IMG/VR virus record: IMGVR_UViG_3300036987_000328
Span: 1-30,598 of that record
DNA: 30,598 nucleotides
Strand: one strand, 5' to 3'
Source: a virus
Lineage: Duplodnaviria > Caudoviricetes
The stretch's first letter is position 1, and every line of letters starts with the position of its first letter. The notes below the pieces were generated by a model. That model was given only the letters and a program-made list of their open reading frames with translations, was not told the DNA's origin and did not search any database. Both the position numbers and the translations under genes were made by a program. This document shows, one piece after another, positions 875 to 18,997 of this stretch.

Positions 875-954
875 TGAATATACACACGATAAATGAGAAA
901 ATGACCTACGCAAATTAAGGACTTACAGCCACGATTGCCGAGATAAATGAGAAA
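875..954 (+). repeat. Left end with two putative transposase-binding sites (GATAAATGAGAAA at 888-900 and 942-954)
   Basis: Left end TGAATATACACACGATAAATGAGAAA aligns without gaps to the reverse complement of the right end, TGTATCGTGACGCGATAAATGAGAAA. Confidence 0.9.
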
Positions 955-1044
955 GACGACATTTTTGCCTTTACATAACTTGACTTTTTGAGAAATCACC
1001 GCTCAAAATAAACTAATTTTAACAATTTGACATTTAAAAAAACA

Positions 1045-1122
1045 ACCACGGACATACCACGGACATGACCACGGACATTTTTATTGCGTTTTTAGAGTGC
1101 ATTTGATACCTACCACGGACAT
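1045..1122 (+). repeat. Four direct repeats ACCACGGACAT (1045, 1056, 1068, 1112)
   Basis: Exact 11-bp copies read directly; non-coding region between the left end and the repressor stop codon. Confidence 0.9.
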
Positions 1123-1248
1123 TTTTCGTCTGACATTATTGCAGACTTAAATTGACATACCCAAAACAAGCCAATTTTCGATAGTTTTAAACGTGATATT
1201 ACTCAAATAAACAATAAAACCTAACTCATTAGCTATAAAGGACTTATA

Positions 1249-1671
1249 TTAAGTTTTAGTGTTTTGCCAGCTACTTTTCTTACTAAAACTATCCTTCAGT
1301 TTTTTAAAAGCTTTACCCATTTCGTCCTTCGCTTTATGAAGTTCCATTGCCGACCTTAAATATTCTATTAGTTCGTTGGTATCTGCCGGATAATCCATAA
1401 TCTCTTTTATAAAAACCTGGACTTCTTCTGGTAGCTCCTGGGGGGTATCACTATTATAGTATATAGTACCTTTTCCCGTGAGCAACCAATTAACATTTAC
1501 TCCTTTGTCTGCTAGTTTTTTTAAAAAGTCGGCTGCGGGGATACGATCTCCTCCTAAATAATTGTTTATTCTCGCGGGAGATTCATTATATAAAATGGCG
1601 AAATCCTTCTGTTTTTGCGCTCCAATAAGTAATAGTATACGTTGTGAAATATTTTTTAAACTATCGTTCAC
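1249..1671 (-). CDS. Prophage repressor, XRE-type HTH, no visible S24 peptidase domain
   Basis: QKDFAILYNESPARINNYLGGDRIPAADFLKKLADKGVNVNWLLTGKG; leftmost gene, divergent from a Ner/Cro-like gene as in Mu. Confidence 0.85.
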   Translation of the reverse strand: MNDSLKNISQRILLLIGAQKQKDFAILYNESPARINNYLGGDRIPAADFLKKLADKGVNVNWLLTGKGTIYYNSDTPQELPEEVQVFIKEIMDYPADTNELIEYLRSAMELHKAKDEMGKAFKKLKDSFSKKSSWQNTKT

Positions 1672-1678
1672 TTTTTGC

Positions 1679-1707
1679 TTGACAAATCAACAAAAGTTTA
1701 TTATATT
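1679..1707 (+). promoter_or_regulatory. Early lytic promoter, TTGACA-17-TATATT
   Basis: Near-consensus hexamers 40 bp upstream of the Ner-like gene; imperfect palindrome GGTGATAATTTTACC at 1711-1725 is a candidate operator. Confidence 0.7.
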
Positions 1708-1746
1708 GCTGGTGATAATTTTACCCATTAATTTTAAAGCTTTTTT

Positions 1747-2076
1747 ATGATAGATATTAATCTCATTAACAAGTCTGAACTTTCGCGGCGACTGGGAATC
1801 TCTGTTATGTACACTCACAACCTGCTTAACGGCTTCCGGCACAGTAAAAAACGGCTGCAGCAAATTGCCGATATGCTGCACTTACCAATCGAAAACTTAA
1901 AGCACCAAATTAAACAATACGGGCGGACTCACGCCGAGCGGACGCATAAAATCCGTAAGGTGAATGTTCTTTCTAAACCTCGAAAAACATACTCGATCAA
2001 TCAAAGACACGTACCCCGCGTTAAACAGGGAGAGTCCGTCCATAATTTAACAAAATCGAAAGCTATTGTCAATTAA
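1747..2076 (+). CDS. Ner/Cro-like HTH regulator
   Basis: INKSELSRRLGISVMYTHNLLNG HTH; first gene of the early operon. Confidence 0.75.
   Translation: MIDINLINKSELSRRLGISVMYTHNLLNGFRHSKKRLQQIADMLHLPIENLKHQIKQYGRTHAERTHKIRKVNVLSKPRKTYSINQRHVPRVKQGESVHNLTKSKAIVN
2044..2072 (-). promoter_or_regulatory. Leftward promoter TTGACA-17-TAAATT with extended TG; candidate repressor promoter
   Basis: Minus strand ttgaca atagctttcgattttgt taaatt; points through the Ner-like gene toward the repressor. Confidence 0.55.
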
Positions 2077-2114
2077 AATAAGCTTAAAAGATTATAACAG
2101 GGTTAACTGAGCTT

Positions 2115-2552
2115 ATGAAAACACAAATACTTGATCTCAGAGGTTTTGGCCAAACGGAATTAATTATTCCCGAGGATTATTTTACAGATACCATTATTCC
2201 CATGATAAGGGAACAAGACAAAAAAATAGCAGCATTATATAGCTCATTAAGACCGAGATTGCCAGAGACCGTCACATCTCAAACTTCGTGTATAGTTCTT
2301 GTTCTAGAACCTCTAACGTTTTTTGAACGTCTTGTAATAAAACGTCATACGTTAAATGTTCGTATCCCGGTCGAGACACCCACAGGATCTCTTGAATTAA
2401 ATGGCGTACTTTTTTACGCCCCTCCGCCGCCAAAAGGTACTCGTTATCAAAAAAAATATCCAGGATTTTTTGCCTTCGTTCTTCAAAAACTTCAGGCATG
2501 TTTAAAACTGATATGGTCCTTTCTGTCGGGGACTTTCCTCCGGTCAAATTAA
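2115..2552 (+). CDS. Hypothetical protein; 3' part overlaps the antisense gene 2272-2727
   Basis: 145-codon ORF in operon orientation; weak RBS. Confidence 0.4.
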   Translation: MKTQILDLRGFGQTELIIPEDYFTDTIIPMIREQDKKIAALYSSLRPRLPETVTSQTSCIVLVLEPLTFFERLVIKRHTLNVRIPVETPTGSLELNGVLFYAPPPPKGTRYQKKYPGFFAFVLQKLQACLKLIWSFLSGTFLRSN

Positions 2553-2727
2553 ATCGATTCAGTATGCTTAACAACCCTAAATATAAATCTAATTGTCTGG
2601 CGGCTACGTCTCTGCTTATCTCATACTTGTGTTGTTTTTTGAGTTTAATTAAATCGAACTGGCTTTGTAAATATGAACCTATCATGCCGCTTACAAGTCC
2701 TATAATAATTAAAACTATTGGTTCCAT
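2272..2727 (-). CDS. Antisense accessory (moron) gene: N-terminal TM helix plus helical domain, 151 aa
   Basis: Start reassigned to ATG 2727 (MEPIVLIIIGLVSGMIGSYL) after an AGGAGAAG RBS; has its own promoter. Confidence 0.75.
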   Translation of the reverse strand: MEPIVLIIIGLVSGMIGSYLQSQFDLIKLKKQHKYEISRDVAARQLDLYLGLLSILNRFNLTGGKSPTERTISVLNMPEVFEERRQKILDIFFDNEYLLAAEGRKKVRHLIQEILWVSRPGYEHLTYDVLLQDVQKTLEVLEQELYTKFEM

Positions 2728-2772
2728 AACTTCTCCTATGGTTTGTGAAATATGATTAACCACTACAGTTAT

Positions 2773-2801
2773 AAAGTAACAAACCATAGCGAGAATTTCA
2801 A
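2773..2801 (-). promoter_or_regulatory. Promoter TTGAAA-17-TACTTT for 2272-2727
   Basis: The -10 region and leader are shared with the 11118-11146 promoter. Confidence 0.65.
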
Positions 2802-2810
2802 GGAGGGTAA

Positions 2811-3266
2811 ATGAACACCATTAAAACACATCTTTACAAATCGATTCACCGCTCAAAAAAGAGCGCCGCGCAAATTGCCGACGAGATCGGTATATCATAC
2901 AGTTATTTATGCCGCGCCGGACTGCCGACTGATGAGAACGGAGTACGTTTCCCGGTTGAGTTGATGGTCCCGCTTATGAAGTCATGCGGCAACTACGATT
3001 TACTAAAACACATCGCCGGACTTGCGGGCTATCTTACCGTAAAAATTCCACACGCATTCAACGATAAAAAGGATGAGGTATCGGCTCTCAACGAATACAA
3101 CGAGCTATGTACCGAAGCCGCAAAAAATATGATGAAGTTTTTTAAAAAACCATCCGACACGCAGATGCAATTAACTATAGATTCGCTTCAAAGAGTAATG
3201 GAGATTTCAGCCGGACTCCAGAAGCGAATTAAAAACTTTAACCAATACGATTTGGAGTTAGAATGA
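2811..3266 (+). CDS. Phage regulatory CII (186/CP76-like) family protein
   Basis: AAQIADEIGISYSYLCR HTH followed by RFPVELMVPLMKSCGNYDLLKHIA; AGGAGG RBS. Confidence 0.7.
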   Translation: MNTIKTHLYKSIHRSKKSAAQIADEIGISYSYLCRAGLPTDENGVRFPVELMVPLMKSCGNYDLLKHIAGLAGYLTVKIPHAFNDKKDEVSALNEYNELCTEAAKNMMKFFKKPSDTQMQLTIDSLQRVMEISAGLQKRIKNFNQYDLELE

Positions 3267-3574
3267 TTATGAATAAATCTCTTGCAAATAAGGTAGCTCG
3301 AAATAATCGTCGGGCCGAATCAAACAAGCAAAGCCAGCAAGAAGTATCTGATCGTCAGAAGATGACCGAGCAGAATGCTGCAACATTAAAAGAATATCAT
3401 GCACTTGAGAAATCTTGTCGTAAGCTAAGGATAAAACACGGACTTGATCCTTCGCATCCAGAGACAATGGATTCATATATGCGTATGCGTCTTCGGCGCG
3501 CAAAACAAAGAGAACGTAATCGCGTAAACGCCCGAAAGCGACGTGCTTCCTCTTCCCAAGCAAAGAAGGGATAA
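3263..3574 (+). CDS. Basic Arg-rich hypothetical protein overlapping the antisense gene 3267-3674
   Basis: ATGA coupling with the CII-like stop codon; helical, charged sequence. Confidence 0.5.
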   Translation: MIMNKSLANKVARNNRRAESNKQSQQEVSDRQKMTEQNAATLKEYHALEKSCRKLRIKHGLDPSHPETMDSYMRMRLRRAKQRERNRVNARKRRASSSQAKKG

Positions 3575-3674
3575 CTACATGATGCTTTTTTGCAACTTTT
3601 GTCATAACAGTTTTAATATTTTTCGATTTGCGATCTGCGAGGTCTATCAACGCCTTGAGTCTTTTATCGTCCAT
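3267..3674 (-). CDS. Antisense hypothetical protein, 135 aa
   Basis: ATG start with AAAGGGTG upstream; promoter TTGTGA-17-TATATT at 3723-3695. Confidence 0.55.
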   Translation of the reverse strand: MDDKRLKALIDLADRKSKNIKTVMTKVAKKHHVVIPSLLGKRKHVAFGRLRDYVLFVLRAEDAYAYMNPLSLDAKDQVRVLSLAYDKISQVHDILLMLQHSARSSSDDQILLAGFACLIRPDDYFELPYLQEIYS

Positions 3675-3694
3675 ACTGCACCCTTTTTAATCGT

Positions 3695-3723
3695 AATATA
3701 CTAATGAACAACGATTCTCACAA
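3695..3723 (-). promoter_or_regulatory. Promoter TTGTGA-17-TATATT for 3267-3674
   Basis: Hexamers and 17-bp spacer read directly. Confidence 0.5.
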
Positions 3724-3742
3724 ATATAGAAAGTAACGGGTA

Positions 3743-5524
3743 TTGATGCTAACATTCCAACAATTTGCCGAAAAAAATAATCTGAGCCTGCGCCACGTGC
3801 GGAGATTAGCCGACCAAAACGGTTACAAACTTATAGTGCATAAAGGTATAGAATATCACTTAACCCGCATCGGCAGGCACGCTAATAATCAGTATGATAA
3901 TTTTGTGGTCGATGAGCGCGACGGTTTAAACAAAAAACATCTCTCCGCGGACGAGAAGCTGCAGTTAAAATTTAAACTCGAACGCGGCGATGACCCGAAA
4001 AATTTAGCCGTTGAGTTTGGGATTTCGATCGCGTCCATCTATCGCGTAAAAAAGAACACCGAACGTAAGGTACGCGCCGATGCCGGCGAAAAGAAATACG
4101 GCTTGCCTCCGAACGCTAAAGGTATTTTTGAAAGCGCGTATTTATCGAACGCACAGCATAATGCGCGTCTTGCTTACGAGTATGCCGTTAAACATATCGG
4201 CGGTATATATTTTCCGTACCGCTACGCTCTTGAATGGGCTAACGAGCTAAAGTCGCTGCATTCCTTCACTCACTATGCGAGCAAGTTTGAATCCGAATTT
4301 AACTTCCACATCAGGCGCGACCTGTGGGCAGAGTTCGAGTTTATGCAGTGTGTTGTTTGGGACGTATGGAAAGCCGACGACTGGGTAATTTACAAAGGCA
4401 AAGATGTGCAGCCGCGCGTTGTGGTTGGCGTCGAGTTGAAGACCGGAATACCGGTTACCTGGAAAGCATTCCCGCACGAGCCAAATGGCGAAGACATAAA
4501 TAGTGTTATGCTTGAGTTTGTTTTCAAGTGGGGAGTCCCGGAAACGATACTTTTAGATAATGGTCGTGAATTTAAAAATGAACAGGTCTTGCGCTTTGTT
4601 TCCGGTTGGTGGGATACGGAACAGCATGAGCGCAAGCGCCGCATTATATTCTCTGAAGCTTACAACCCGCGCTCGAAGGGACGGCTTGAGAGATTATTTA
4701 AAATAATGAAGGATGAACATTGTGCATTTTCAGCCGCTTACTCTCCTAATCCTAAGGAAAGTCGTAAACCTACACTACAGCTTTCACACGTCAAAGCCGA
4801 TAAAACTCTCAAAGAATTCTGCGCCGGCCTGGACGATTTTATGAATAACGGATTGTTAGACCGTCAGAGAACTATGTGGTTCAACAATAATTATACCCGG
4901 AGTCACGCGATAAATGAGAACCGTCCCAGGACAATGAGAGAAGCGGTGGATAGATGTTACAGCTCTTATGAACCGCGTAAAATTGAGAGCACAAAACTCG
5001 CATTCCTCTACGCCAAAAAATTCACAAAGAATTTACGCAACGCTGCTTTTAAAGTAACTTATGCCGGCGAGCGCTTTATGTATTTGCCCGATGATTTACC
5101 GTTCGAGCGCTTCCATGAAACGTTCGATATACTGCTCGATCCTGTAAATGTCGGTCACGCTTATGTCTGCGATTTAAAAGGTGTAATGGTTTGCGAAGCT
5201 TGGGATTTGCGTTATAAGAATGTAGGTCTAAGTCGTGAACAAGCAGCGGAAGCCAAGAAATACAATTATCGGATAAAAAAAGCAGCAAAACATCGCTCAG
5301 AGCTGATAAACGATTTAAACAAAGTGGCTCCGTCTGTTGCGAAAAGACATATCGTCAAGGAGACAGTACCGGTTGATAACATCGAGGAATCATTGTACGG
5401 CGGATTAAAAGTGGAACCCAGTGCAATTGAGATGGACTCCGAATACCAAGAAATTTATGAACAGGTGTATTCAAATATCTATAAACAAACAGGAGATGGT
5501 GATGAACAATTTAGTGAAAACTAA
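3743..5524 (+). CDS. MuA-like DDE transposase
   Basis: N-terminal HTH motifs and RKVRADAG linker; catalytic VVWDVW, ILLDNGREF and SKGRLERLF motifs; start TTG 3743 or ATG 3746. Confidence 0.92.
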   Translation: MMLTFQQFAEKNNLSLRHVRRLADQNGYKLIVHKGIEYHLTRIGRHANNQYDNFVVDERDGLNKKHLSADEKLQLKFKLERGDDPKNLAVEFGISIASIYRVKKNTERKVRADAGEKKYGLPPNAKGIFESAYLSNAQHNARLAYEYAVKHIGGIYFPYRYALEWANELKSLHSFTHYASKFESEFNFHIRRDLWAEFEFMQCVVWDVWKADDWVIYKGKDVQPRVVVGVELKTGIPVTWKAFPHEPNGEDINSVMLEFVFKWGVPETILLDNGREFKNEQVLRFVSGWWDTEQHERKRRIIFSEAYNPRSKGRLERLFKIMKDEHCAFSAAYSPNPKESRKPTLQLSHVKADKTLKEFCAGLDDFMNNGLLDRQRTMWFNNNYTRSHAINENRPRTMREAVDRCYSSYEPRKIESTKLAFLYAKKFTKNLRNAAFKVTYAGERFMYLPDDLPFERFHETFDILLDPVNVGHAYVCDLKGVMVCEAWDLRYKNVGLSREQAAEAKKYNYRIKKAAKHRSELINDLNKVAPSVAKRHIVKETVPVDNIEESLYGGLKVEPSAIEMDSEYQEIYEQVYSNIYKQTGDGDEQFSEN

Positions 5525-5843
5525 CGGCAGTAAAAAAGAGTTGATGTCAGAATTAATCGGCATCGAGAATAAACTCGCTACAATAATCGAGCGCGTGGTT
5601 GATTTAGACGACGAAAAGAAAGCCCTGCAGCTGGAGCTTAAAGCTACGCGCCAAGCTAAACGCCTTAAAGAGAATAGAATGGAAGCGAGAGGTTTAAATG
5701 AAGTATTACAACAGGCGGTCGGTGCGCAGAGAGTTTTAAAACGAGCGTTAAAAAAAATCGGCATTGAGATACAGCCGACAAAGCTTGACCAAATAATGCA
5801 GGATGGAACAAAAGCCAAACTGCTTGAACATGTAACAATATAA
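5502..5843 (+). CDS. Coiled-coil hypothetical protein in the position MuB normally occupies
   Basis: AGGAG at 5491, ATG 5502; heptad-rich; no Walker A motif. Confidence 0.7.
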   Translation: MNNLVKTNGSKKELMSELIGIENKLATIIERVVDLDDEKKALQLELKATRQAKRLKENRMEARGLNEVLQQAVGAQRVLKRALKKIGIEIQPTKLDQIMQDGTKAKLLEHVTI

Positions 5844-5854
5844 GGAGAACAACC

Positions 5855-6130
5855 ATGAGTGACGGCACACTCGAAACGGTAGTAAAAAAAATGAGAGACG
5901 AGGTTAATGAAATGAACGCCTTAATTTCTCACACATCGGAAAAAGCGGCAGCACTAAAGGAAAGCGTAGCCACATACAACCGGCTTAAGTTCGAAGAGGG
6001 CAGGTTAAAAAAAGAAATGAAGCGCATCAATGGACATGTCGAATTTATTATAGACATGCACAAAAAAATCACTGGTAACTTCCCCGATGGGATATTCCCG
6101 TTATTTAACCAACCGGAATCGGGCCGTTGA
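5855..6130 (+). CDS. Coiled-coil hypothetical protein
   Basis: TAAGGAG RBS; operon packing. Confidence 0.75.
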   Translation: MSDGTLETVVKKMRDEVNEMNALISHTSEKAAALKESVATYNRLKFEEGRLKKEMKRINGHVEFIIDMHKKITGNFPDGIFPLFNQPESGR

Positions 6131-6654
6131 AAATCCAAATAGAAAATACCGAGGCAGGAAAGGTTTATGTTGGCATGACGCTAAGCGGACGCAAGTATCG
6201 CGGCGCATCGATGGATGAAGTCAACCGCAAATACCTGCTCGCGATCCTTCACATGCATAAAAAACAAATCGGAGACGAAGTATTCACAGACCTCTGCGCA
6301 AGTATGTTCAGTGGCAGAACACATCTCTCCGATTTGACGATTGCAGAAATGTATAAATTAAAATCTACACTGGTGGATGCGGTTAGGTTCGGCGAGAAGA
6401 TAGAGAATTCACAACAGATAGAGCCGATGATAACCGTTCGCCAAAGGAAAAGTATTATCCGGTTAGGTCGTTATGTACTCGGCGAGCATTACGGTAAAGA
6501 TTGGTTCTGGAAAAAGCTGAACGAATGGACGAAAAAATCAAAATTAGACGACCTGACGGTTGCAGAAGCGCGTTATGTTATTGAAAGGCTTGAAAAAATT
6601 GAGAAACGTCTTGGTATTGAAAAGCAGAGAGCGGCAAATGGCAAAGAAATCTAA
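6127..6654 (+). CDS. GemA / Mu gp16-like (DUF1018-like) protein
   Basis: Two related motifs, HLSDLTIAEMYKL and KLDDLTVAEARYVIERL; position in the early operon. Confidence 0.65.
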   Translation: MKIQIENTEAGKVYVGMTLSGRKYRGASMDEVNRKYLLAILHMHKKQIGDEVFTDLCASMFSGRTHLSDLTIAEMYKLKSTLVDAVRFGEKIENSQQIEPMITVRQRKSIIRLGRYVLGEHYGKDWFWKKLNEWTKKSKLDDLTVAEARYVIERLEKIEKRLGIEKQRAANGKEI

Positions 6655-6859
6655 AACGAAAAGACAAAACACCCGGCGCTTACGTCCGGTTAAATGTGTT
6701 GGTTGCGGTTGCACCCAGAGTAAGCCGTGCATAATAGCCGGGAAGGCTTGTAGATGGATTTTTATCTCTACAAAATTCTCCGCTGGGATATGCAGCTCAT
6801 GTGTTCATGTCCCCGGAATAATGGAAAAATTTATTAAAAAGGCAATCTCGAATATTTAA
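6638..6859 (+). CDS. Small Cys-rich, probably Zn-binding protein
   Basis: CVGCGCT...PC...CRW...GICSSC; start reassigned to ATG 6638. Confidence 0.65.
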   Translation: MAKKSKTKRQNTRRLRPVKCVGCGCTQSKPCIIAGKACRWIFISTKFSAGICSSCVHVPGIMEKFIKKAISNI

Positions 6860-6861
6860 CC

Positions 6862-7380
6862 ATGAAAACGAGTTCTAAAATAATCTGGAAGAGCAAAATA
6901 TTCCCTGACATGGTTTTTACCGAGCAGATGCTCGCAGTTTATAAAACTGCTTATCCGAATATCAAGTCGTTTCAACCTGAACTTCTCAAGGCTGAGGCAT
7001 GGCTTGTCTCTAACCCGGAGAGAGTGCCTGAAAGCCGTTGGGGACGTTTCGTGAATAACTGGATGCGCATAGCCAATCAAATTGCGGAAGAGTATAAGAA
7101 TAAAACTCCCGGCGCTTACAGAGAGCCTTCACGCCGCACCGGTGGAAACAATAAAGAAGTATTATCGTTGGGACAAATTTTAAACAAGGCACGTGGACAC
7201 GACCTACAAACAACTTCCCCGCCGGATAACGGTCAGTCGATAGACCGGTCCGGTAATGCAGATGCGCCCGGAGATACACGGGCTTCTATCACCTCCTCCA
7301 TCGCGCCCGGAGCCACTATATCCGGGCGTGGTATATTCAACAACAACTATTCATTATTTATTAAACCCAAAATCAATTAG
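6862..7380 (+). CDS. Hypothetical protein resembling the C-terminal domain of phage replication initiators, with a low-complexity tail
   Basis: AYPNI...ELLKAEAWLVSNPER...WGRFVNNWM motif. Confidence 0.55.
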   Translation: MKTSSKIIWKSKIFPDMVFTEQMLAVYKTAYPNIKSFQPELLKAEAWLVSNPERVPESRWGRFVNNWMRIANQIAEEYKNKTPGAYREPSRRTGGNNKEVLSLGQILNKARGHDLQTTSPPDNGQSIDRSGNADAPGDTRASITSSIAPGATISGRGIFNNNYSLFIKPKIN

Positions 7381-7388
7381 GAGATACA

Positions 7389-7898
7389 ATGGCAAAACAA
7401 AAAACAGCTACAAAATCAAACCTTACGTCTTTCACTGACGTTGATAACAATCTCAGACTTATAGCTCTGAATCAAAGCTTCACAAAAAAGAAAGAAGCGG
7501 AGATGAATAAGCAGATGCTCGAGATACAAAAACGTTTCGAGGAAGATACACGCGAAGCTCGCGAACAGGTAATGGCTATGGAGAAAGACATCGAGCTTTA
7601 TTGCAACGAGCATCGAGATGAATTCGTGGAATCCAAAACCATTACGCTCAACTTTGGGATAGTAAGTTTCCGGTTGACACCTCCAAAACTTACAACACTC
7701 AGGGGCTTTACGTGGGATACGGTTCTCGCGCTGATGAAAAAACTGAAGCTTACAGACTACATTAAAATTTCAGAAGGCGTGGATAAGGAAAAGCTCAAAA
7801 CTGAAATTACCGATGCGAAAGACCTTGCTACGATCGGATTACAGCTCGCACAGTCGGAACAGTTTTACTACGAAGTAAACGAGACGCCGATTATCTAA
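7389..7898 (+). CDS. gam: Mu Gam-like host-nuclease inhibitor
   Basis: Long N-terminal coiled coil, then SKTITLNFGIVSFRLTPP...VDKEKLK...IGLQLAQSEQFYYE; AGGAG RBS. Confidence 0.88.
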   Translation: MAKQKTATKSNLTSFTDVDNNLRLIALNQSFTKKKEAEMNKQMLEIQKRFEEDTREAREQVMAMEKDIELYCNEHRDEFVESKTITLNFGIVSFRLTPPKLTTLRGFTWDTVLALMKKLKLTDYIKISEGVDKEKLKTEITDAKDLATIGLQLAQSEQFYYEVNETPII

Positions 7899-8305
7899 TG
7901 GCTCGTTACCGAAAAGGCAGGCTCATAGGAGAAATCATCAAGCAGTTGCCGACTGCCGGCATGCCTTTATTCGAATTTTCTCGTAACGATGTGCGGGATT
8001 CTAAAATCAAGGTCGCACCAAAACAGATCGAAACCGGAGCAGACCGGCGCGATGAAAGCTATAAAATCGTTTGCAACAATTTACCGATTAGCCAGAAAAT
8101 AGTTTACGATGCTTTTAAAGAATTAGGCTTTGCAACTGACCGTGAAGTATCAGTCTATTTTAATATACCGGTTAACAAAGTAACGGCGCGCCGGAATGAG
8201 CTGCTGGAGTTAGGACTTATGGTTAAAGCCGGAGAAATATTTGACGAAGAAACTAAACGCGAAGTGAACACATGGAAAATAAAAGGAGACAAAACTAATG
8301 GATAA
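7898..8305 (+). CDS. Winged-helix DNA-binding protein
   Basis: ATDREVSVYFNIPVNKVTARRNELLELGLM. Confidence 0.7.
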   Translation: MARYRKGRLIGEIIKQLPTAGMPLFEFSRNDVRDSKIKVAPKQIETGADRRDESYKIVCNNLPISQKIVYDAFKELGFATDREVSVYFNIPVNKVTARRNELLELGLMVKAGEIFDEETKREVNTWKIKGDKTNG

Positions 8306-8870
8306 AACTCAAAAGTTGTTGGAGCAAATCGGAGAAACAGGTTTACAAATTATGACCGTATTAATAGCTTTATACGTTAGCATAGTTGGCACGCTTACAT
8401 TGCTTCACAGTTACAACCCCGAAACGATTATCAAATCACTCTCGAAATACTTCATATCCCTCCTAGTATTATTTATCGGCTGTGCGCCGAGCATCCAGGA
8501 AAGGTTTGTGATTACTGAGCGCGTAGATTCAGTTTACATCCCCGGCGATACAGTCTTTGTGCAATCATTAAGTGATACGCTGTACATCGTACGCGACTCA
8601 ACCGGCAGCATTGTAGACGTTAGCGCATCGCTCGATACAACAGTGGATAAAACATCTCTCAGGCTTAACTACCAATTAAGTCTGGACCGCTGGACTGTTA
8701 ATATTACAAAGAAAGACACAGTAATAAAGTATAACATCATCGATACGAGCAAAACAATTATCGTTGACAGGATAATTGAGAAGACGCCGATCTGGATTTA
8801 TCCCTTACTTGCCGCGGTAGCATTAGTCATAATTCTCGGCATCGTATTGGCGATAAAGGGAAAGATATGA
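8298..8870 (+). CDS. Membrane/lipoprotein with internal lipobox and C-terminal TM helix; candidate unimolecular spanin
   Basis: KYFISLLVLFIGC lipobox, beta-rich middle, C-terminal TM (WIYPLLAAVALVIILGIVLAI); AAGGAG RBS. Confidence 0.6.
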   Translation: MDKTQKLLEQIGETGLQIMTVLIALYVSIVGTLTLLHSYNPETIIKSLSKYFISLLVLFIGCAPSIQERFVITERVDSVYIPGDTVFVQSLSDTLYIVRDSTGSIVDVSASLDTTVDKTSLRLNYQLSLDRWTVNITKKDTVIKYNIIDTSKTIIVDRIIEKTPIWIYPLLAAVALVIILGIVLAIKGKI

Positions 8871-9058
8871 TTTGTCCGAAGTGTGGCAAAGATAATAATT
8901 TTGTCCGAACGACGGAAGATAATTTTTATGAAAAGCAGATTATCAGAATCCGATTCTGTAAAACCTGCGCACACATGTACCAAACAATGGAGACAGCAAT
9001 AACCAATGAAACCTATAACAAAATCAAAAAGGAGCAACAAAATGAAAAACGAACCTAA
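8867..9058 (+). CDS. Zinc-ribbon protein (NrdR N-terminal / Ogr-Delta-like)
   Basis: CPKC...IIRIRFCKTCAHMYQTME; ATGA coupling. Confidence 0.7.
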   Translation: MICPKCGKDNNFVRTTEDNFYEKQIIRIRFCKTCAHMYQTMETAITNETYNKIKKEQQNEKRT

Positions 9059-9392
9059 AACTCAACCTCAATATCCACCGGATATGGACCCACCAGAACT
9101 AGATCCACCAGTTCAGGAGCCACCTGTTCAAGATCCACCGGCAGACGACCCGCCGGCAGAGGCATTATCAACCGAGGCGCCTATAACCGCAAAGGCAAAT
9201 AAGTATGAAATCAATTATAAACTACTGCGCGCCGGAAAAGAGAATGAATCCGTTACCATAAAAGTCAGCGCAAATACGGAAGAAGAAGCATTCGACATAG
9301 CGGCAAAGATGTTGGAAGATATGTGTACCGAAGCGGACCCGTTCACATGGCGCTATCTTGGACACTTCAAGGTAACTCCAAATGAAGGATAA
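9042..9392 (+). CDS. Protein with N-terminal Pro/Asp pentapeptide repeats
   Basis: AAGGAG RBS, ATG 9042; six degenerate 15-bp units at 9075-9164. Confidence 0.7.
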   Translation: MKNEPKTQPQYPPDMDPPELDPPVQEPPVQDPPADDPPAEALSTEAPITAKANKYEINYKLLRAGKENESVTIKVSANTEEEAFDIAAKMLEDMCTEADPFTWRYLGHFKVTPNEG

Positions 9393-9879
9393 AATAAAAT
9401 ATTTTATCCTTCTATTCAAGAAGGACTATTCATTTGCCGGCACTTTGGTGTCGGCAATTTTACTTACCGCATCCATCGCGTTTAAATCTCCGTTCCTCGG
9501 CTATCTGTTTTTTATTTTCGCATTCACTTCCTTCGATGTGCTCGGGTTTTTGAGAGTGCTTCAAGCGCAGGATGGCGTTCCGCGCGCTGCATACCGTGTG
9601 GTTCAAACTTCATTTCAAATAATGCTAATGCTCGTTATTTATCTACTGTTCGGTTGGAAACTTGTCCTCGCTTGCTTTATTGCTTGGTGGTTCACCGTTT
9701 GCGATTTATTATTCCACCCGATGGCTAAAGTAGAACTCCCCGAAGGCGAAATTAATTATCTAAACTGGTCTGTATTAGGGTTAGTTAAATTATCCGGGAC
9801 GGTAATAGACACGGAATGGTTTTTACTCGCATCGGTATTAGGTTTTTGTGCTGGCGGAGCTATAGCACTGTGGATGTAG
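9382..9879 (+). CDS. Multi-pass membrane protein
   Basis: Four to five hydrophobic segments. Confidence 0.7.
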   Translation: MKDKIKYFILLFKKDYSFAGTLVSAILLTASIAFKSPFLGYLFFIFAFTSFDVLGFLRVLQAQDGVPRAAYRVVQTSFQIMLMLVIYLLFGWKLVLACFIAWWFTVCDLLFHPMAKVELPEGEINYLNWSVLGLVKLSGTVIDTEWFLLASVLGFCAGGAIALWM

Positions 9880-9896
9880 AATTTAAACACAAACGC

Positions 9897-10061
9897 ATGT
9901 CTGCGAAGCCGAAGATTTTATTAATGAGGTCATGCGGTCATAAATCGGCAAAAGTTATAGCCGATAAATGCCCTGCTTGTTATTTTAAGAAACGCCAGGC
10001 AATTCTAAATAAGAAACGCAGAGAATTTAAGTACGGATTTTTCACAAACAAAAAAAGATGA
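9897..10061 (+). CDS. Small basic Zn-finger-like protein
   Basis: CGH...CPAC; stop codon coupled to the next ATG. Confidence 0.5.
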   Translation: MSAKPKILLMRSCGHKSAKVIADKCPACYFKKRQAILNKKRREFKYGFFTNKKR

Positions 10062-10711
10062 TACCAAAGGAAGTTGAAAACAGAATACTGCGCTCCGCCG
10101 ACAGCCTCGTGAGGTCGGTGCGAAAAGAGATACTCGCATTTATACGGCAGGGCAAAACTTTGGATGAGATATATGAATTTTTAAAACGGTTTCAACTGCC
10201 ATCGCTGGAAGTTACAAAACTGCGGTCTGCTTTAGAAAAATCTATGGAAGAAATTGCGAGGGCGCGAGGCGTAAGCGCTTATGCTGGCGCGGCAGAGTTG
10301 ATAGATGTCGATTCTCTCATAGCTTCATCTCGGATTAATTTTCCGAGGCTGAGAAAAGAAATACGCACTACGCTGTTAAACGAAACGCGCCGCGCTATTG
10401 CCTCAGGAGCCGGCGTTGAGCACCTGGCAAAACAGTTAAGAGAAAAAGAATTAAACAACGTTCAAACGCTTGCCGAGACTGCCGTTGCTGGATTCAATAA
10501 CGAGCTTACGTTTGCACAAGCAGATGACGGCGATAAGTATTTGTACTCGGGACCCGTTACGGATATTACGAGACCTTTTTGCAGAGCACACGCCGGCAAA
10601 ATTTACACGCTCGAACAAATAGAGAACATGGATAACGGGCAGGGACTTCCTGTCCGTTCTAACTTAGGCGGCTACCGATGCCGGCACAGTTGGGAGATTT
10701 ATATAAAATGA
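10058..10711 (+). CDS. Minor head morphogenesis protein (Mu gpF / SPP1 gp7-like)
   Basis: YSGPVTDITRPFCRAHAGKIYT...GGYRCRHSW. Confidence 0.75.
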   Translation: MIPKEVENRILRSADSLVRSVRKEILAFIRQGKTLDEIYEFLKRFQLPSLEVTKLRSALEKSMEEIARARGVSAYAGAAELIDVDSLIASSRINFPRLRKEIRTTLLNETRRAIASGAGVEHLAKQLREKELNNVQTLAETAVAGFNNELTFAQADDGDKYLYSGPVTDITRPFCRAHAGKIYTLEQIENMDNGQGLPVRSNLGGYRCRHSWEIYIK

Positions 10712-11052
10712 ATAACAAAACTGAAACTCAAGCTGATGTCTATGTACGGTGGCTTATTTCTTCCGGTTACGCTGAACCGGGGGACTACTCTTCACTGATT
10801 CAGCAATTTCTATACCGAAACTCTTTTTATTGGATCCGTGAAAAATATACAAAACAAAATGTTGTGGCAACCACAACTCAAACCCTTCTTCGACTCCTCG
10901 AAGATCTTGAATCTTCTTTAAAGAAATGTAGGAATAATCCATGTGAATATCCCCACAAAAAAGGAGCCCCTCAGGGTGAACCAGAAAATTATAAAATGAT
11001 TCAGACTTTAAGATTAATTGAGCTTCAACTGTTAGCTTTATCTCGTAGGTAG
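10708..11052 (+). CDS. Hypothetical protein overlapping the antisense gene 10754-11068
   Basis: ATGA coupling at 10708 with the gpF-like stop codon; GGGAG upstream. Confidence 0.5.
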   Translation: MNNKTETQADVYVRWLISSGYAEPGDYSSLIQQFLYRNSFYWIREKYTKQNVVATTTQTLLRLLEDLESSLKKCRNNPCEYPHKKGAPQGEPENYKMIQTLRLIELQLLALSRR

Positions 11053-11068
11053 GAACTTTTTGAGACAT
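10754..11068 (-). CDS. Antisense accessory gene, 104 aa, beta-rich
   Basis: Start reassigned to ATG 11068 after AGGAGAAG; has its own promoter. Confidence 0.7.
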   Translation of the reverse strand: MSQKVPTYEIKLTVEAQLILKSESFYNFLVHPEGLLFCGDIHMDYSYISLKKIQDLRGVEEGFELWLPQHFVLYIFHGSNKKSFGIEIAESVKSSPPVQRNRKK

Positions 11069-11117
11069 AATTCTTCTCCTGGTGGTTTGTGAAATTGTTG
11101 TTATGTTTAGCACATAT

Positions 11118-11146
11118 AAAGTAACAAATCACCCGGAGTTTTACAA
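11118..11146 (-). promoter_or_regulatory. Promoter TTGTAA-17-TACTTT for 10754-11068
   Basis: Shares TTTGTTACTTTATA and the downstream TTTCACAAACCA..AGGAGAAG with the 2773-2801 promoter. Confidence 0.65.
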
Positions 11147-11180
11147 TAAATTTAAAAAGATAACCACATATCGTTCTAAC

Positions 11181-11209
11181 TTGACTTTATCAATTCCAAA
11201 TAGTATATT
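11181..11209 (+). promoter_or_regulatory. Promoter TTGACT-17-TATATT upstream of the structured leader
   Basis: Hexamers and spacer read directly. Confidence 0.7.
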
Positions 11210-11271
11210 TCGCCTGTCCAAAGATCTCAACGGCGGTAATTCATCCGCCCCGACAGGCGGCATTTTATTTT

Positions 11272-11338
11272 TGCCCCTCTGCATCCCGCTTTTTGTCGGG
11301 GTGATAGCTTCCGTTGAGGCTATTGGACCAGAGGGGCA
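11272..11338 (+). ncRNA. Putative C4/CI-like antisense RNA
   Basis: Perfect 10-bp closing stem TGCCCCTCTG/CAGAGGGGCA; internal CCGTTGA and TTGGAC are complementary to TCAACGG and GTCCAA, which occur both upstream and downstream. Confidence 0.7.
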
Positions 11339-11385
11339 CTTTATTTTTAATTCACTAATGTCCAATTAATTTCAACGGAGCCAAA

Positions 11386-11595
11386 ATGGCTAAACAAACC
11401 ATCACCCACCAAATTGTATCACTACAGGATAAAATCGAAAGGATACTCTCACTTTTAAACGTCCTATCACGGTCTATCCTTTATAATGAGGATACTTACT
11501 TCCACTCAGATGCGGTCCTCATCGACCATGTAATAGGCGAGTTAAAACTAATCGACACAAATCTTACCAAAATTAGAAAGGAGAATTTTATATGA
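11386..11595 (+). CDS. Small helical protein, first gene behind the antisense switch
   Basis: GGAG RBS overlaps the antisense target. Confidence 0.7.
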   Translation: MAKQTITHQIVSLQDKIERILSLLNVLSRSILYNEDTYFHSDAVLIDHVIGELKLIDTNLTKIRKENFI

Positions 11596-12122
11596 AGCAG
11601 ATATTTGAATACGACAAAGTGCATGGCGTTAAATGTGCGGTATGGAAGAACGCTCCTTTCGAATCAAGGAGTCGACACTCGGGCGCGCTCGTGCAGCACG
11701 AGACCAGTGACGGCAAAAAGATATTGGTATGCCCGCGGTGTAAGGTGGATATGCAAAACTTGAAAAATTTCCTAAACGCCGAGCAGGCTGGTCCGCACCA
11801 ATACCGCTGCCAAATTATTGACTACGATGCAGAGCAGAAAAAAAAGAAAGACGAGCTTACGGTATTCAACGAGGCTAAACGGAAGGAGATGAATAAAAAA
11901 ATATCGCACGAACACATGAGAGCGATATTTGTGAAGTTCGAAGCTCTTTCTATCAAAACCGGTATGACATTAAAAAAAGTTGCTAAAAATGCCGGGCTTC
12001 CTAGAGGAGTATCTGAACGTATATCAAATCCTGCCGAGTGGTACAGTCTTCATCCGCGTAAATGGAAAATGGCTGAGCGAACTTTAGACGATTATGCAAT
12101 GCGCATTAAAAATAAAACATAG
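11592..12122 (+). CDS. Putative regulator (CxxC, C-terminal HTH)
   Basis: AAGGAG RBS, ATGA coupling; TGMTLKKVAKNAGLPRGVSERISN HTH-like. Confidence 0.6.
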   Translation: MKQIFEYDKVHGVKCAVWKNAPFESRSRHSGALVQHETSDGKKILVCPRCKVDMQNLKNFLNAEQAGPHQYRCQIIDYDAEQKKKKDELTVFNEAKRKEMNKKISHEHMRAIFVKFEALSIKTGMTLKKVAKNAGLPRGVSERISNPAEWYSLHPRKWKMAERTLDDYAMRIKNKT

Positions 12123-12126
12123 CCCG

Positions 12127-12146
12127 TTGCCGAGATAAATGAGAAA
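12127..12146 (+). repeat. Internal copy of the left-end site TTGCCGAGATAAATGAGAAA
   Basis: 20/20 identity to 935-954. Confidence 0.9.
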
Positions 12147-12226
12147 ACACGGCTTGTACCGAAAAGTGGTTATTCAAATTTCTTCCATATATCGTTTATA
12201 AGCCATTTTATTTTGTTAATTTTGGT

Positions 12227-12259
12227 AGGGGGTGGAAACATACCACCCCCTGTTTTTAT
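12227..12259 (+). terminator. Intrinsic terminator
   Basis: AGGGGGTGG-aaacata-CCACCCCCT followed by GTTTTTAT. Confidence 0.6.
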
Positions 12260-12380
12260 AAAAAATGTGGCACTAAAACAAGCAGGAAACACCACTTTTT
12301 TATATCACTTTTTAGTTCCTCGGAGTAGTTAAACTAGCAAATCAGGTATATATGCAAAAATAATAGTTTTGCGCACTTTT

Positions 12381-12406
12381 AAAAAGCCGGTCATGTGATC
12401 GGCTTT
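12381..12406 (-). terminator. Intrinsic terminator of the leftward head operon
   Basis: Minus strand AAAGCCGATCACATGACCGGCTTTTT right at the stop codon. Confidence 0.7.
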
Positions 12407-12974
12407 AGTTTTTTAGTCCCGCTTTCTCAATTATCGTAGCAATCTCCGGTTGTGATAAACCAATAAACACGCGTTTAACTTTACTACGCCCAGCGCCGGC
12501 ATGGTGGAAACCGGCTATCTCCGCAGCGCGGTTATCCGTAAAAGATATTGTAACGGACCTCTCAGCTTCGTTCACTCCTGTGACTTTGAGCGCGCGCAAC
12601 ATTCCGCCCGCCCAGTTTAAAGTTACTCTATCGGTTTCGCGCCCTGTTAATTCTCTCAGTCGTTTGTAACCGCCCTGTAAAAGTATCCAGGTCATTTTAT
12701 TGTTTGTGTAGATAAAGTCCTTACCTTGCATATCTTTCCAAATTTCTCTCGCTCTGGTAACTCCGACCTTTGCTTTGAAACTCCCCAAAGGCATCGGAGC
12801 GGGCTTAGTAGAATATTTGTTTGATCCGCTTGACGAACCCGCCAAGAATATCCCTTGCAGAGTTCGAGCTTTTATAACAGCGAGCGTGTGTTTACCGAAA
12901 TTAAGCAGCAGCGAGCGTGTTACTATTTTTTTTATAAGCTCATCGGCGTTAATATTTATTACATTCTCGCTCAG
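12405..12974 (-). CDS. Virion morphogenesis protein (Mu gpG-like), probable CTG start
   Basis: VTLNWAGGMLRAL...AEIAGFHHAGAG...RVFIGLS motifs; the frame stays open upstream of 12845 to CTG 12974, which overlaps the portal TGA. Confidence 0.75.
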   Translation of the reverse strand: MSENVININADELIKKIVTRSLLLNFGKHTLAVIKARTLQGIFLAGSSSGSNKYSTKPAPMPLGSFKAKVGVTRAREIWKDMQGKDFIYTNNKMTWILLQGGYKRLRELTGRETDRVTLNWAGGMLRALKVTGVNEAERSVTISFTDNRAAEIAGFHHAGAGRSKVKRVFIGLSQPEIATIIEKAGLKN

Positions 12975-14140
12975 ATTATTTTATCCCCTTCTTCCGGGAT
13001 ATTAAAACCTAACTTTTGGTACACTTCATTTCTAACGAGAGGTATGTCCGCGGCGCGGGCTTCGCTTATTATACGCGCGTTCTTTTCGTAATCCACGACT
13101 TCATCCGTATTAAATCTAAAGCTTGGTCGGAGTGTAACATCCTCGCCGTAATTTAATTTATAATCCACAGCGATATACTGTTCGTTCACTGTCCGTTCAA
13201 TAGTCTGCAAATCAGACCACATAATATCGTTACGCACAAGGTTGTGAATCTGCGCTGCGGCTTTACTGCCAGTATTGCCGGCAAGTTCAGTTGTTAGCGT
13301 TTGCCCTAAAAATAAAATTGACATCTCGTCGTTTACTGCGTGCAATAAATCCTTATATGCCTGAATAGATCCGGCTCTCGTTGCTTCAATAAATTCAAGC
13401 TTAACGTCTTCACTCACGGCAGCCCAAGCATCCGTGCCTATTTGCTCGGCGGCTTGTTTAGCCACGGCTTTATCCTCGTCGCTGGCTCCGCGCTTCCATT
13501 GCGCCCATCGCAGCGGCTGTGCGAACAACTCGTTAAATTTTCCCCAATCCTGCCAGTTGAAGTTTTTAATGTGTGCCAACCAAAGTGCCAAGCGTAAGAG
13601 TCCGCCGATATAATTTGGGTCGACCGATTCGAAGGGGTTGTATCTTAAAACTATAAATTGCTCTTCAGGCGCCATTTCTTCGGTGGCTATAATATCCTGG
13701 TCTTTTATCCGTACTACCGTATTGTTTTTTGACATCAACTCCACGCATGGAATAATGGAAAATTTCGCGATGGTTTCTTTTCCGATATTTTGCCACTCCT
13801 GTTTTAACGCACTGGTCCCGAAGAACACAGAACTTAAGAGTGGTCCAAAATAATGATGAAGCCCTGAGCGTATTAACCTATCTTTGGTTTTTATCGCAAT
13901 CTCCACTGCTTTTGCGTTTTCACTGTCAGCCGGTAGAATATCGAATGGATAGCCGGTAACGGCAAGCGTTCGCGTTTGCATCAACCCTGCGATCCTCATA
14001 TCCGCTTGAGGCAGGCGCGATAGTATCGAGAGCAGCGGACGCGGATCCGGATCAATCTCGGATTCTGCAAGCCGTATCGCTTTTTTTGTTTCTTCTATAG
14101 TCGGTAAGAGTTTTTTACGCAGTGGTGGGTAGATATACAT
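12971..14140 (-). CDS. Portal protein (Mu gp29 / DUF935-like)
   Basis: GLMQTRTLAV, WGKFNELFAQP and MSILFLGQTLTT...GSKAAAQIHNLVR motifs. Confidence 0.88.
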   Translation of the reverse strand: MYIYPPLRKKLLPTIEETKKAIRLAESEIDPDPRPLLSILSRLPQADMRIAGLMQTRTLAVTGYPFDILPADSENAKAVEIAIKTKDRLIRSGLHHYFGPLLSSVFFGTSALKQEWQNIGKETIAKFSIIPCVELMSKNNTVVRIKDQDIIATEEMAPEEQFIVLRYNPFESVDPNYIGGLLRLALWLAHIKNFNWQDWGKFNELFAQPLRWAQWKRGASDEDKAVAKQAAEQIGTDAWAAVSEDVKLEFIEATRAGSIQAYKDLLHAVNDEMSILFLGQTLTTELAGNTGSKAAAQIHNLVRNDIMWSDLQTIERTVNEQYIAVDYKLNYGEDVTLRPSFRFNTDEVVDYEKNARIISEARAADIPLVRNEVYQKLGFNIPEEGDKII

Positions 14141-14142
14141 AA

Positions 14143-15729
14143 TTAAAACCTTTCAGAAAATTTTCTTTTTTGTCCGCCGATGTAGGAAGACTCAGAGCTG
14201 TTCATTGAATTTGCCATAAACCACACTTCCTTGTATGCTGAAGCAAGTGCATCGGGAAAATCTTTGTGCGGATAATTTCCGTAACCTATAAGCTGTGCCT
14301 GTGCCTCGATACCGTCCCGATTTTTGAGAAAATCCTCAGCGAATATAATGTCTTTCATCGAGTATGGAGTTTCAACGGTTTCTATCCTCCATTCCTTTTT
14401 ACCTTCAACGCGGATTTCGCGTATAGGTAAACGAGGACGGTCAGCGGTGGAAACGAACAGTCTTTGAAAATCTAAGAACTGCGCCTGGAAGAAATTAGAT
14501 TCCCAACCGAAGAACACAATGTGGTCTTTATATCTTTCATAAAGAGAGTAAAGCCCGAGAAAATAATCTTCCCAGCCGCATTTACGGCAGAACGCATCGG
14601 GTGAATAAAACCTGCGTGTAGTTTTTGAATAGAATAAAACCGCGGCGGCTTTATAGCAGGATGTTTCGCCCATAGCCGGATCGCAGAAAACAATTCCACG
14701 CGCGTCTTTTGGCAGAGTCTTAAAAGTAGTCCAATCCTTCATTAGGAACCTGGTCCCCTCAGGCGGTGTCGGCTTTTGCTGGTATTCAGAATTCCAAACG
14801 GATTTTGATACTCCAACGCCGAGACGCATTTCTTCCTCGGTCTTATACTTATAGCGTTCGGACCAGGTGGGCTTTTGTTTCTTATCATCCCATGCAGGTA
14901 TGATATTTAACTCGATAGAGGGATGGAGCGCTGCCCGGTCTGTATCGAACATCTCGGCAATGATGTTAAAGATACAGGTTGTCCGCGCGTTGTTACCCAG
15001 CATAACGGCAGCTCCATCGTCGGCAAGCGCTGGGAGGAAGTCTCTCTCGATTACTTCGAGTTTAAATTTTGAAATTTCAATATTGATAGAAGTTGAAAAA
15101 TCTTCGAAGTCGTCGAACTCAAAAAAGTCCGGTCGTGTTTTGCCAAGCTCGCCGCGTGCTGTAACCTTCGCCGAGTAGGATGAGAAGAGAGTGCCGAGCG
15201 CGTTATACTTATGCGGTAAAACGTAAAACGCTGCCATAGCATTCCAGCCCGGGTCAATCAGCTCTCCGAAATCAGCCCGTATCTTTGCGTTGTACTCCAT
15301 CTCCATGCGAACATACTTAAAATCTTTATATACGAGGTCTATCGTGTCGGATACTTTACCGTAAAAATGCCGCTTACCAAAACAAGCGCACCATATTTTG
15401 AAAATTCTGAATATCAAAGTTTTGCCGAAAGTTCGCGGACCTGCTATGAATACGCACTTCTTATCCGTGCGCTGTGCCTGTTCTATCATCCATTTATGCT
15501 TAGCGTTAAAAGGATGGTTAAAGTAATAATCCGGAAAGTAGGTTTTTGCAAAATAGAAAAAATCGCTCTGAGCTTTCAGGATCCGTTTTTCTTTTTGCTC
15601 GGCCCATTCCTTTGGAAGCTCTTTATCTCCGCGCTCGCGGAGGGCTTGCATAAGCAGCTCACGCTCGCGTCGTGCAAACTGATGTTCGAGCAGAGAGAAG
15701 GAGTTATTTATTACTTCTCTGATTTCCAC
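14143..15729 (-). CDS. Terminase large subunit
   Basis: Walker A GPRTFGKT, Walker B FFEFDDFED, nuclease motifs VFCDPAMG and HKDFPDALA. Confidence 0.9.
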   Translation of the reverse strand: MEIREVINNSFSLLEHQFARRERELLMQALRERGDKELPKEWAEQKEKRILKAQSDFFYFAKTYFPDYYFNHPFNAKHKWMIEQAQRTDKKCVFIAGPRTFGKTLIFRIFKIWCACFGKRHFYGKVSDTIDLVYKDFKYVRMEMEYNAKIRADFGELIDPGWNAMAAFYVLPHKYNALGTLFSSYSAKVTARGELGKTRPDFFEFDDFEDFSTSINIEISKFKLEVIERDFLPALADDGAAVMLGNNARTTCIFNIIAEMFDTDRAALHPSIELNIIPAWDDKKQKPTWSERYKYKTEEEMRLGVGVSKSVWNSEYQQKPTPPEGTRFLMKDWTTFKTLPKDARGIVFCDPAMGETSCYKAAAVLFYSKTTRRFYSPDAFCRKCGWEDYFLGLYSLYERYKDHIVFFGWESNFFQAQFLDFQRLFVSTADRPRLPIREIRVEGKKEWRIETVETPYSMKDIIFAEDFLKNRDGIEAQAQLIGYGNYPHKDFPDALASAYKEVWFMANSMNSSESSYIGGQKRKFSERF

Positions 15730-17017: not shown

Positions 17018-17093
17018 ATGATCCTTTTAATAGTTATGGGTAAGATAGAAGTTATCCCTTTAAAATCTACTCATAAGTATATGTATCTATGGC

Positions 17094-17123: not shown

Positions 17124-17145
17124 AATCAAAAGTTAGAATAGGATT

Positions 17146-18986: not shown

Positions 18987-18997
18987 GGATTATTCAA

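Follow-up and report, generated by a model that had tools for sequence, protein, structure and literature searches.

The 30,598-nucleotide (nt) stretch of DNA analysed here (hereafter the window), one virus record of IMG/VR (IMGVR_UViG_3300036987_000328; Caudoviricetes), contains a whole Mu-like prophage spanning positions 875..30471. At three sites in this prophage, a small gene on the minus strand lies opposite an open reading frame (ORF) on the plus strand. At site 1, a plus ORF (2115..2552, 145 residues) that starts 39 nt after a ner-like gene faces a minus gene of 151 codons (2272..2727). At site 2, the minus gene (3267..3674, 135 residues) faces a plus ORF (3263..3574, 103 residues) coupled through an ATGA motif to a cII (CP76)-like gene (2811..3266, plus strand; PF06892, phrog_101), which separates sites 1 and 2; site 2 is followed by an essential gene, that of the Mu-type transposase (3743..5524, plus strand; phrog_310). 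At site 3, the plus ORF (10708..11052, 114 residues) is ATGA-coupled to a gpF-like gene and faces a minus ORF called as a gene, for a predicted all-beta protein of 104 residues (10754..11068). An earlier note on this DNA had reported these pairs, and our re-derived coordinates confirmed the overlaps of 281, 308 and 299 bp as well as the ATGA starts at 3263 and 10708, which overlap the stop codons of the cII-like and gpF-like genes. All three pairs are indeed in the 1-1 register, in which codon position 2 of one strand faces position 3 of the other, and the shadow ORFs cited for comparison (17133-17471 and 17990-18499) are in the 3-3 register. However, the single register holds for this window and is no rule in relatives: in 10 cassettes from outside the window, the first plus ORF is in the 1-1 register in six cases, 2-2 in three and 3-3 in one. 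The window sequence showed 0 differences in all four DNA runs compared, one of which is possibly its source, the others covering the stretch in pieces; a look-up of RNA runs containing this DNA listed none.

The minus ORFs act as real genes with signals of their own, as judged from gene calls, homologues for pair 2, promoter patterns and Shine-Dalgarno (SD) sequences. Gene callers picked the minus ORF in all three pairs. The ribosome-binding site (RBS)-like sequences reported earlier were recovered as SD-like AGGAG before minus genes 1 (2737-2733) and 3, and AAGGG before minus gene 2. A promoter with a 17-bp spacer had been claimed for each minus gene. That of pair 2 (TTGTGA-17-TATATT; 3695..3723, minus strand) appeared in a consensus scan that listed 25 sites, versus 25.4 expected, whereas those of pairs 1 and 3 were absent from it and have comparative support (see below). 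Minus protein 1, the product of an accessory gene, has a hydrophobic N-terminus and an Atlas feature score of 0.96, and matches no common Pfam family. Minus protein 2 belongs to a small conserved family with an LAGF..RPD motif. A homologue (34% identity, E = 1e-12) is encoded at the same place in L007, one of the fetched phage loci compared with the window and designated by L-numbers, and P0024 is a third family member (E = 2e-19). The Atlas matches of minus protein 2 all scored <0.9, and its alignment was not found in 401 genomes of the likely host class. Homologue searches with minus proteins 1 and 3 returned only themselves, and minus protein 3 had no PDB match at E ≤ 0.001 with a single-sequence model (predicted local distance difference test score, pLDDT, of 63); its signals and the gene call argue for minus gene 3 being genuine. 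None of the six pair ORFs had a significant match in Pfam, PHROGs or PADLOC, or a toxin or defence domain; the toxin/antidote-like partners suggested in the earlier note are thus unsupported.

In L002, L009 and L011, cII directly abuts the transposase gene, and site 2 is thus empty; the ner-cII gap is 29-35 nt in L002 and L003, and the sites of L002 are empty. Other relatives carry different genes at these sites. Among 14 minus proteins compared, only those of window pair 2 (W2) and L007 are alike, and the minus gene of L071 belongs to a known phage family (phrog_1244, E = 7e-32). As the sites are empty in some loci and occupied by different genes elsewhere, the minus genes are exchangeable inserts. 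In L003 (2374-2400) and L007 (886-915), unrelated minus genes share nearly the whole 5' leader through the SD to the start codon, which suggests that the cargo is swapped at the start codon. Elsewhere in the window, the interval between gene 20760-21056 and the tape measure gene holds a reverse ORF (21192-21623, minus strand) with a hydrophobic C-terminal half; this ORF, devoid of a leader element of the type described next, is possibly a fourth reverse insert.

Two blocks, of 14 and 13 nt, are identical between minus genes 1 and 3 and recur in L003 and L007. They mark a leader in which a promoter pattern on the minus strand is combined with a predicted RNA hairpin on the plus strand; neither this leader nor the small ORFs that complete the plus-strand chains (see below) figured in the earlier note. 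Copy 1 of the hairpin (2733..2793, plus strand) consists of an outer stem, a GAAA/AAGUA internal loop and an inner stem, with the promoter pattern of minus gene 1 (TTGAAA-17-TACTTT; 2773..2801, minus strand) inside its 3' arm. Copy 2 is located at 11076..11138 (plus strand), and the promoter pattern of minus gene 3 (TTGTAA-17-TACTTT) at 11118..11146 (minus strand). The covariance model described below found no such hairpin at the pair 2 site.

The leader was found at eight further phage loci, making 10 copies in all, each ahead of a different reverse gene. A strict pattern retrieved four viral stretches, three of them new and all with this layout, and a pattern scan of 401 genomes gave two matches, one of which was accepted. 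A covariance model built from eight copies then recovered L004 and L071, neither of which was in the training set. In a model search of 151 genomes two matched, one being a training copy; the model found nothing in five cII-bearing genomes or in L002 (with its empty sites), and five phage records contained no further copy. The exact window motif had no viral match, and blastn against annotated phages gave no useful match. A loose pattern yielded 50 loci, mostly by chance, which were used as controls. On the minus strand, TTG is found exactly 17 nt ahead of TACTTT in 9 of the 10 copies versus 0 of 34 chance loose-pattern matches, and no search pattern included the -35 element. The SD and start codon follow 18-24 nt past the second block on the same strand. 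Spacer length modulo 3 is alike in 7 of 10 copies, which is only suggestive. L018 was rejected as a copy, being devoid of outer pairs, -35 and SD, and a model match of 15 bits in L006 was not counted as an element.

The plus strand folds into a stem, a 4x5 GAAA/AAGUA internal loop and a second stem, and this stem covaries: 85.6% of 160 cells are paired and 23 double changes occur, a level that none of 500 shuffles reached. Related sequences can beat such shuffles, and slid controls reached at most 51%. Of the wobble cells, 19 are compatible with the plus strand and 3 with the minus strand. The plus strand folds to a lower energy than the minus strand in 10/10 copies (in one by only 0.1 kcal). 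A minus transcript, whose start is predicted about 7 nt past TACTTT, would begin within the hairpin and lack one of its arms, which also points to the lytic RNA as the molecule that folds. AGUA opposite GAA, flanked by helices, is invariant in 10/10 rows and corresponds to the bulged-G (loop E) motif as a sequence pattern only. Other roles were considered for the element, among them that of an attC-like recombination site. An operator for a dimeric protein was ruled out, as the arms covary and their spacing varies from 15 to 23 nt, and a generic host translation enhancer was rejected, with TTTCACAAACC present five times in each of two genomes versus 3 and 8 times for the reversed control.

On the plus strand, the three inserts are crossed by chains of ORFs. 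The chain of site 1 runs through 145, 63 and 20 codons to cII. Its first link is the plus ORF of pair 1, the second (2564..2755, 63 residues, 3-3 register) starts 11 nt after the stop of the first, and the third (2752..2814, 20 residues) is ATGA-coupled at both ends and hands over to the cII-like gene. At site 2, links of 103, 41 and 10 codons lead to the transposase gene; the later ones (3579..3736) encode 41 residues (3579-3704) and 10 residues (3704-3736, TAATG-coupled) and end 10 nt before the transposase ATG. Site 3 has a weaker chain of 114, 10 and 95 codons without an all-ATG path, as its later plus-strand links (11060..11369) start with TTG (11060-11092) and GTG (11082-11369); they end 17 nt before the next plus gene. 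A terminator-like hairpin (11245-11260, plus strand) is found inside the last link, and read-through into the genes at 11386 and 11592 could depend on its being translated.

The codon-shuffle check that the earlier note had called for was run. The overlaps of pairs 1, 2 and 3 were stop-free in 0.5%, 0.7% and 0 of 5000 codon shuffles, and in 3.2%, 7.3% and 1.8% of synonymous randomisations that keep the minus protein; codon-order shuffling carries no information for cassettes in the 2-2 register, such as those of L071 and L008, where it gives p = 1 by construction. For a test of the chains, we assembled 15 cassettes: the three of the window, eight from element-bearing loci chosen regardless of ORF length and four picked by position. 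The reverse ORF of L077 was left out of the tests, its boundaries not being fixed. With three start codons allowed, 12 of the 15 cassettes were crossed in at most three links, and two coupled ORFs span at least 84% of the insert in seven of the eight element-bearing loci outside the window. Compared with a synonymous null, chain length at these eight outside loci gave a Fisher p of 3.7e-5 with three starts and 2.3e-4 with ATG only, and of 0.0013 after removal of L004, whose second minus ORF is perhaps itself a shadow, and L007, the pair 2 homologue. As for the longest open antisense run, the Fisher p was 0.91 for 46 control genes and 0.010 for the cassettes (rank test, 2.6e-4). As a set, the cassettes thus depart from the expectation for neutral shadow ORFs, whose open length is set by the codons of the real gene; single cases are not decisive. 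The chains switch frame within the insert and include links of 10-63 codons.

Reverse genes in other settings were also inspected. In L012 (14917-18129), several reverse accessory genes follow gpF near the operon end; two of the three tested had no excess open antisense frame and one did (p 0.018). The cargo family of L071, phrog_1244, occurs in 54 annotated phage records and is oriented backwards within an operon in four of six inspected. Among these four, an ORF covers the reverse gene completely in D3112 and RcWaterboi, and a chain of four links does so in HK446; VW-6B has neither. The covering ORFs of D3112 and RcWaterboi are unremarkable because of high G+C content. The leader element was not found in these phages. 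Unannotated operon-strand ORFs of 150 and 177 codons cover the reverse gene in L089 (D3112 orf25) and L092 (RcWaterboi gene 10), respectively, and that of D3112 ends across the terminase start.

We propose the following mechanism. A small accessory gene inserted backwards in the early operon is likely to be expressed in the lysogen from its own predicted promoter, the orientation of the genes suggesting which are lysogenic and which lytic. Lytic transcription from an early promoter pattern at 1679 (TTGACA-17-TATATT) would then have to cross 300-500 nt of antisense insert before reaching cII, the transposase and later genes. RNA that is not covered by ribosomes is prone to termination by Rho, and rho was present in all five genomes tested from the likely host class. 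A coupled chain would probably keep the lytic mRNA occupied by ribosomes and thereby prevent Rho from stopping transcription ahead of the transposase and later genes, and inserts that keep such a chain would be retained, polarity being the presumed selective force. The first ATGA of site 2 was probably inherited from the cII-transposase junction seen in L002, and it is therefore the open frames after it that call for selection. At two of the three sites, the predicted plus hairpin is complementary to the first ~35 nt and the RBS of the accessory mRNA, and it is therefore likely to silence that gene at induction; it would be a built-in antisense silencer once lytic transcription starts. Reverse accessory genes, coupled plus chains acting as ribosome bridges and a hairpin leader acting as a silencer would jointly account for the data, an explanation towards which we lean slightly. 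More tentatively, and with some doubt, the insert may be a portable plug-in, with a leader that is both a lysogeny promoter and a self-silencing RNA and with ribosome-escort ORFs of its own that are meaningless as proteins. In that case, a lytic operon could take up any gene in reverse orientation, to be expressed in the lysogen and shut off upon induction without polar effects, and the filler ORFs would be a nursery for new genes, pair 2 being partway there.

A number of observations weigh against the bridge-and-silencer explanation. Each pair on its own is only mildly unusual, and 40 ordinary genes of this phage yield three 1-1 runs of 91-97 codons. L007 needs five links, the element-bearing L019 has no coupled chain and L004 has no full chain at site 1; the four Proteobacterial phages with reverse phrog_1244 genes gave mixed results (p 0.03 to 1). 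The chain test has no matched control set, and its coupling windows were set after the chains of the window had been seen; therefore, only the outside loci count as a test. The ten leader copies are not fully independent lineages, and pair 2 and the four site-only cassettes are devoid of the element. Finally, between W2 and L007, 17 of 84 plus-frame residues are identical versus 10.6 expected (p 0.017), third-position identity is 31/84 versus 22.8 (p 0.02), and the 1-1 register is over-represented, in 6/10 cassettes versus 11/46 controls. According to the available portion of PMC2268670, this register leaves two proteins the most freedom.

The plus-frame similarity and the register enrichment favour true dual coding, as inferred in the earlier note, in which the long first plus ORF would be a functional lytic protein sharing its DNA with the lysogen gene and the short later links would be filler. 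Along the same line, the initial 52 codons of plus ORF 1 have a codon-use score (0.10) like that of the genes of this phage, the plus ORFs of L006, L008 and L015 were picked by gene callers, and a published precedent has activity on both strands (Fc02 gene 10 and olg1, in the accessible part of PMC9936078). In favour of bridges, the phrog_1244 minus gene of L071 is fully nested in a 169-residue plus ORF without family. In pair 2, the plus frame is open over 93 codons in the homologue L007. In the overlap of W2 and L007, however, identity by minus codon position is 37/54/32 of 87, a pattern indicative of selection on the minus protein, and the plus alignment has a z of 2.7 versus 21 for the minus; with this one DNA homologue, selection appears strong on the minus frame and weak on the plus frame (p about 0.02). 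For the plus ORFs of the window, neither Pfam nor PHROGs gave a family and tblastn against the fetched loci gave no relative, a weak blank because no dedicated deep homologue search was run, and the exact sequence of the pair 1 plus ORF is absent from the protein collection. Single-sequence folds of the pair 3 proteins (pLDDT of 57 for the plus and 63 for the minus) do not discriminate. What stands of the dual-coding proposal is that the plus frames are open and coupled beyond chance; functional plus proteins are a possibility kept alive by the mild excess of plus-frame conservation. The frame switches in mid-insert, the other registers in relatives and the minus-frame conservation of pair 2 make it probable that the plus ORFs are not conserved proteins but bridges that carry ribosomes across and so counter polarity. 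This translation-bridge option, one of two put forward in the earlier note, is the better fit to the chain test, the open-run test and the registers. We therefore consider dual coding unlikely, if still a serious contender, and a mixed state of bridge and protein is possible.

The hairpin might have another role, with the bridges as proposed: it could be a site of processing or protein binding, for RNase III or antitermination for example, by which the next gene is uncoupled from the antisense-paired region, and would not be a silencer. Stem and loop together measure some two helical turns and include the invariant 4x5 internal loop, a structure that we take to resemble an RNase III site. AAAGTA is found 37-60 nt ahead of the next plus start in 9/10 copies, and GAAAU is invariant although required by neither the promoter nor the pairing; GAA/AGUA fits the bulged-G sequence pattern, as given in the consulted part of PMC4227780. 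Yet the element always points at a reverse gene, with the SD 18-24 nt away, it is missing from L002, where the sites are empty, and in pair 3 the copy and the next annotated-type gene are 268 nt apart. We judge such a role improbable, if the main alternative to a silencer. The bridges themselves would be superfluous if the plus ORFs were ordinary shadow ORFs over real reverse morons, with the ATGA left over from an ancestral cII-transposase junction. The single-pair p values of only 0.02-0.07 under the synonymous null, the 91-97-codon runs in ordinary genes, the same ATGA at the empty L002 junction and the chainless L019 are all consistent with this. Nevertheless, independent cassettes picked by their leader and not by ORF length show the same excess, which the 46 control genes do not, and the later links are coupled too, so that we regard shadow ORFs as very improbable.

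The prophage setting supports the assignment to Mu-like phages. Scans with Pfam and PHROGs matched a Mu-type transposase, repressor, ner, cII-like, Gam, Mu portal, gp36 and tail genes. The termini are TG...CA at 875 and 30471 (window 871-876 and 30470-30475), with inverted repeat I18, and CTAT on either side is an apparent 4-bp target duplication within a large host gene; the target duplication of Mu is 5 bp. Internal copies of the end-repeat sequence are located at 933-962, 4904-4920, 12125-12154 and 23127-23156, one of them directly after the last early gene. No MuB-type ATPase was matched after the transposase among the 48 proteins scanned with Pfam and PHROGs; in its position lies a gene for 113 residues without family (5502-5843), with relatives in L002, L004 and L007. 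Tandem duplicated 153-residue genes (19819-20280 and 20295-20756; DNA ~80-85% identical) probably encode the tail tube, from their position. In L007 (6936-8424), the gpF-like gene is extended to 398 residues and followed by a coupled gene of 96 residues, a layout that presumably resembles MuF toxin/immunity pairs. Transposases with 31-42% identity were found in relatives, among them prophages in Melioribacteraceae genomes, and a host in what we take to be the corresponding class, Ignavibacteria, is therefore likely. A closer transposase, 70% identical, is encoded on contig P0008. Single-protein locus scans found no locus with the cII, transposase or pair 2 alignment, and one weak locus with the portal.

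The antisense overlap of lysogenic and lytic genes in a transposable phage has already been published (PMC9936078), whereas the promoter-hairpin and the coupled filler chains appear to be new, as far as the accessible sections of that source go. No report of a shared promoter-hairpin or of coupled filler chains was found in the literature covered, which included few subscription papers. The observation is real and testable, its function being predicted from sequence. It offers a testable non-protein reason for the persistence of long antisense ORFs in prokaryotic genomes, selection for translation and not for the product, and is relevant to the long-standing debate on the status of shadow ORFs as genes. 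The new structured leader marks candidate lysogen-expressed accessory genes, possibly for exclusion or defence, in a barely studied phage group, and would represent a compact design for placing a reverse gene inside an operon.

The closest layout is that of olg1/olg2 versus gene 10 in the B3-like Pseudomonas phage Fc02, which is transposable like the phage of the window and in which a promoter-bearing lysogen gene is antisense to an early lytic ORF right after ner, where pair 1 lies in the window (PMC9936078, available part). In the window pairs, too, a gene with a predicted promoter overlaps an ORF of the early operon over a long antisense stretch. In Fc02, both strands have demonstrated exclusion activity according to that part of PMC9936078. 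Compared by description only with what is accessible of that source, the window differs from Fc02 in its number of sites (three), its exchangeable cargo, its chains of several coupled ORFs and its shared promoter-hairpin, and the word hairpin does not occur in the text of PMC9936078. Reverse-oriented prophage morons, in the consulted part of PMC7067206, similarly have their own promoter and are antisense to lytic genes; unlike in the window, no covering coupled ORFs or shared leader structure are described for them there.

The proposed silencer also has counterparts. The predicted hairpin would be transcribed opposite its target and is complementary to the target's 5' end and RBS, the SD being 18-24 nt off, which is the layout of sieB/sas in phage P22. 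The sas RNA reportedly derives from the lytic pL transcript, and in the RNA-OUT/RNA-IN pair of IS10 a stem-loop is likewise said to be the complement of the opposite mRNA at its 5' end and RBS. As in our proposal, sas is an antisense RNA that base-pairs to control the translation of a prophage exclusion gene, in the portions available of PMC12197685 and PMC7067206; it is one 105-nt RNA for one gene, whereas the window has a portable leader before unrelated genes and its RNA is predicted. The AGUA/GAA internal loop follows the pattern of the bulged-G motif of loop E and sarcin-ricin RNA, as far as the excerpted PMC4227780 describes it. The hairpin matched no Rfam family above the gathering threshold, and its geometry is a prediction from the nucleotides. 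Lastly, the bias of convergent overlaps to the 123/132 phase, cited in the accessible part of PMC2268670, concerns the very register of all three window pairs; that bias was seen in 3' overlaps >15 nt, whereas those of the window are 281-308 nt long, near-nested and chained to links in other frames.

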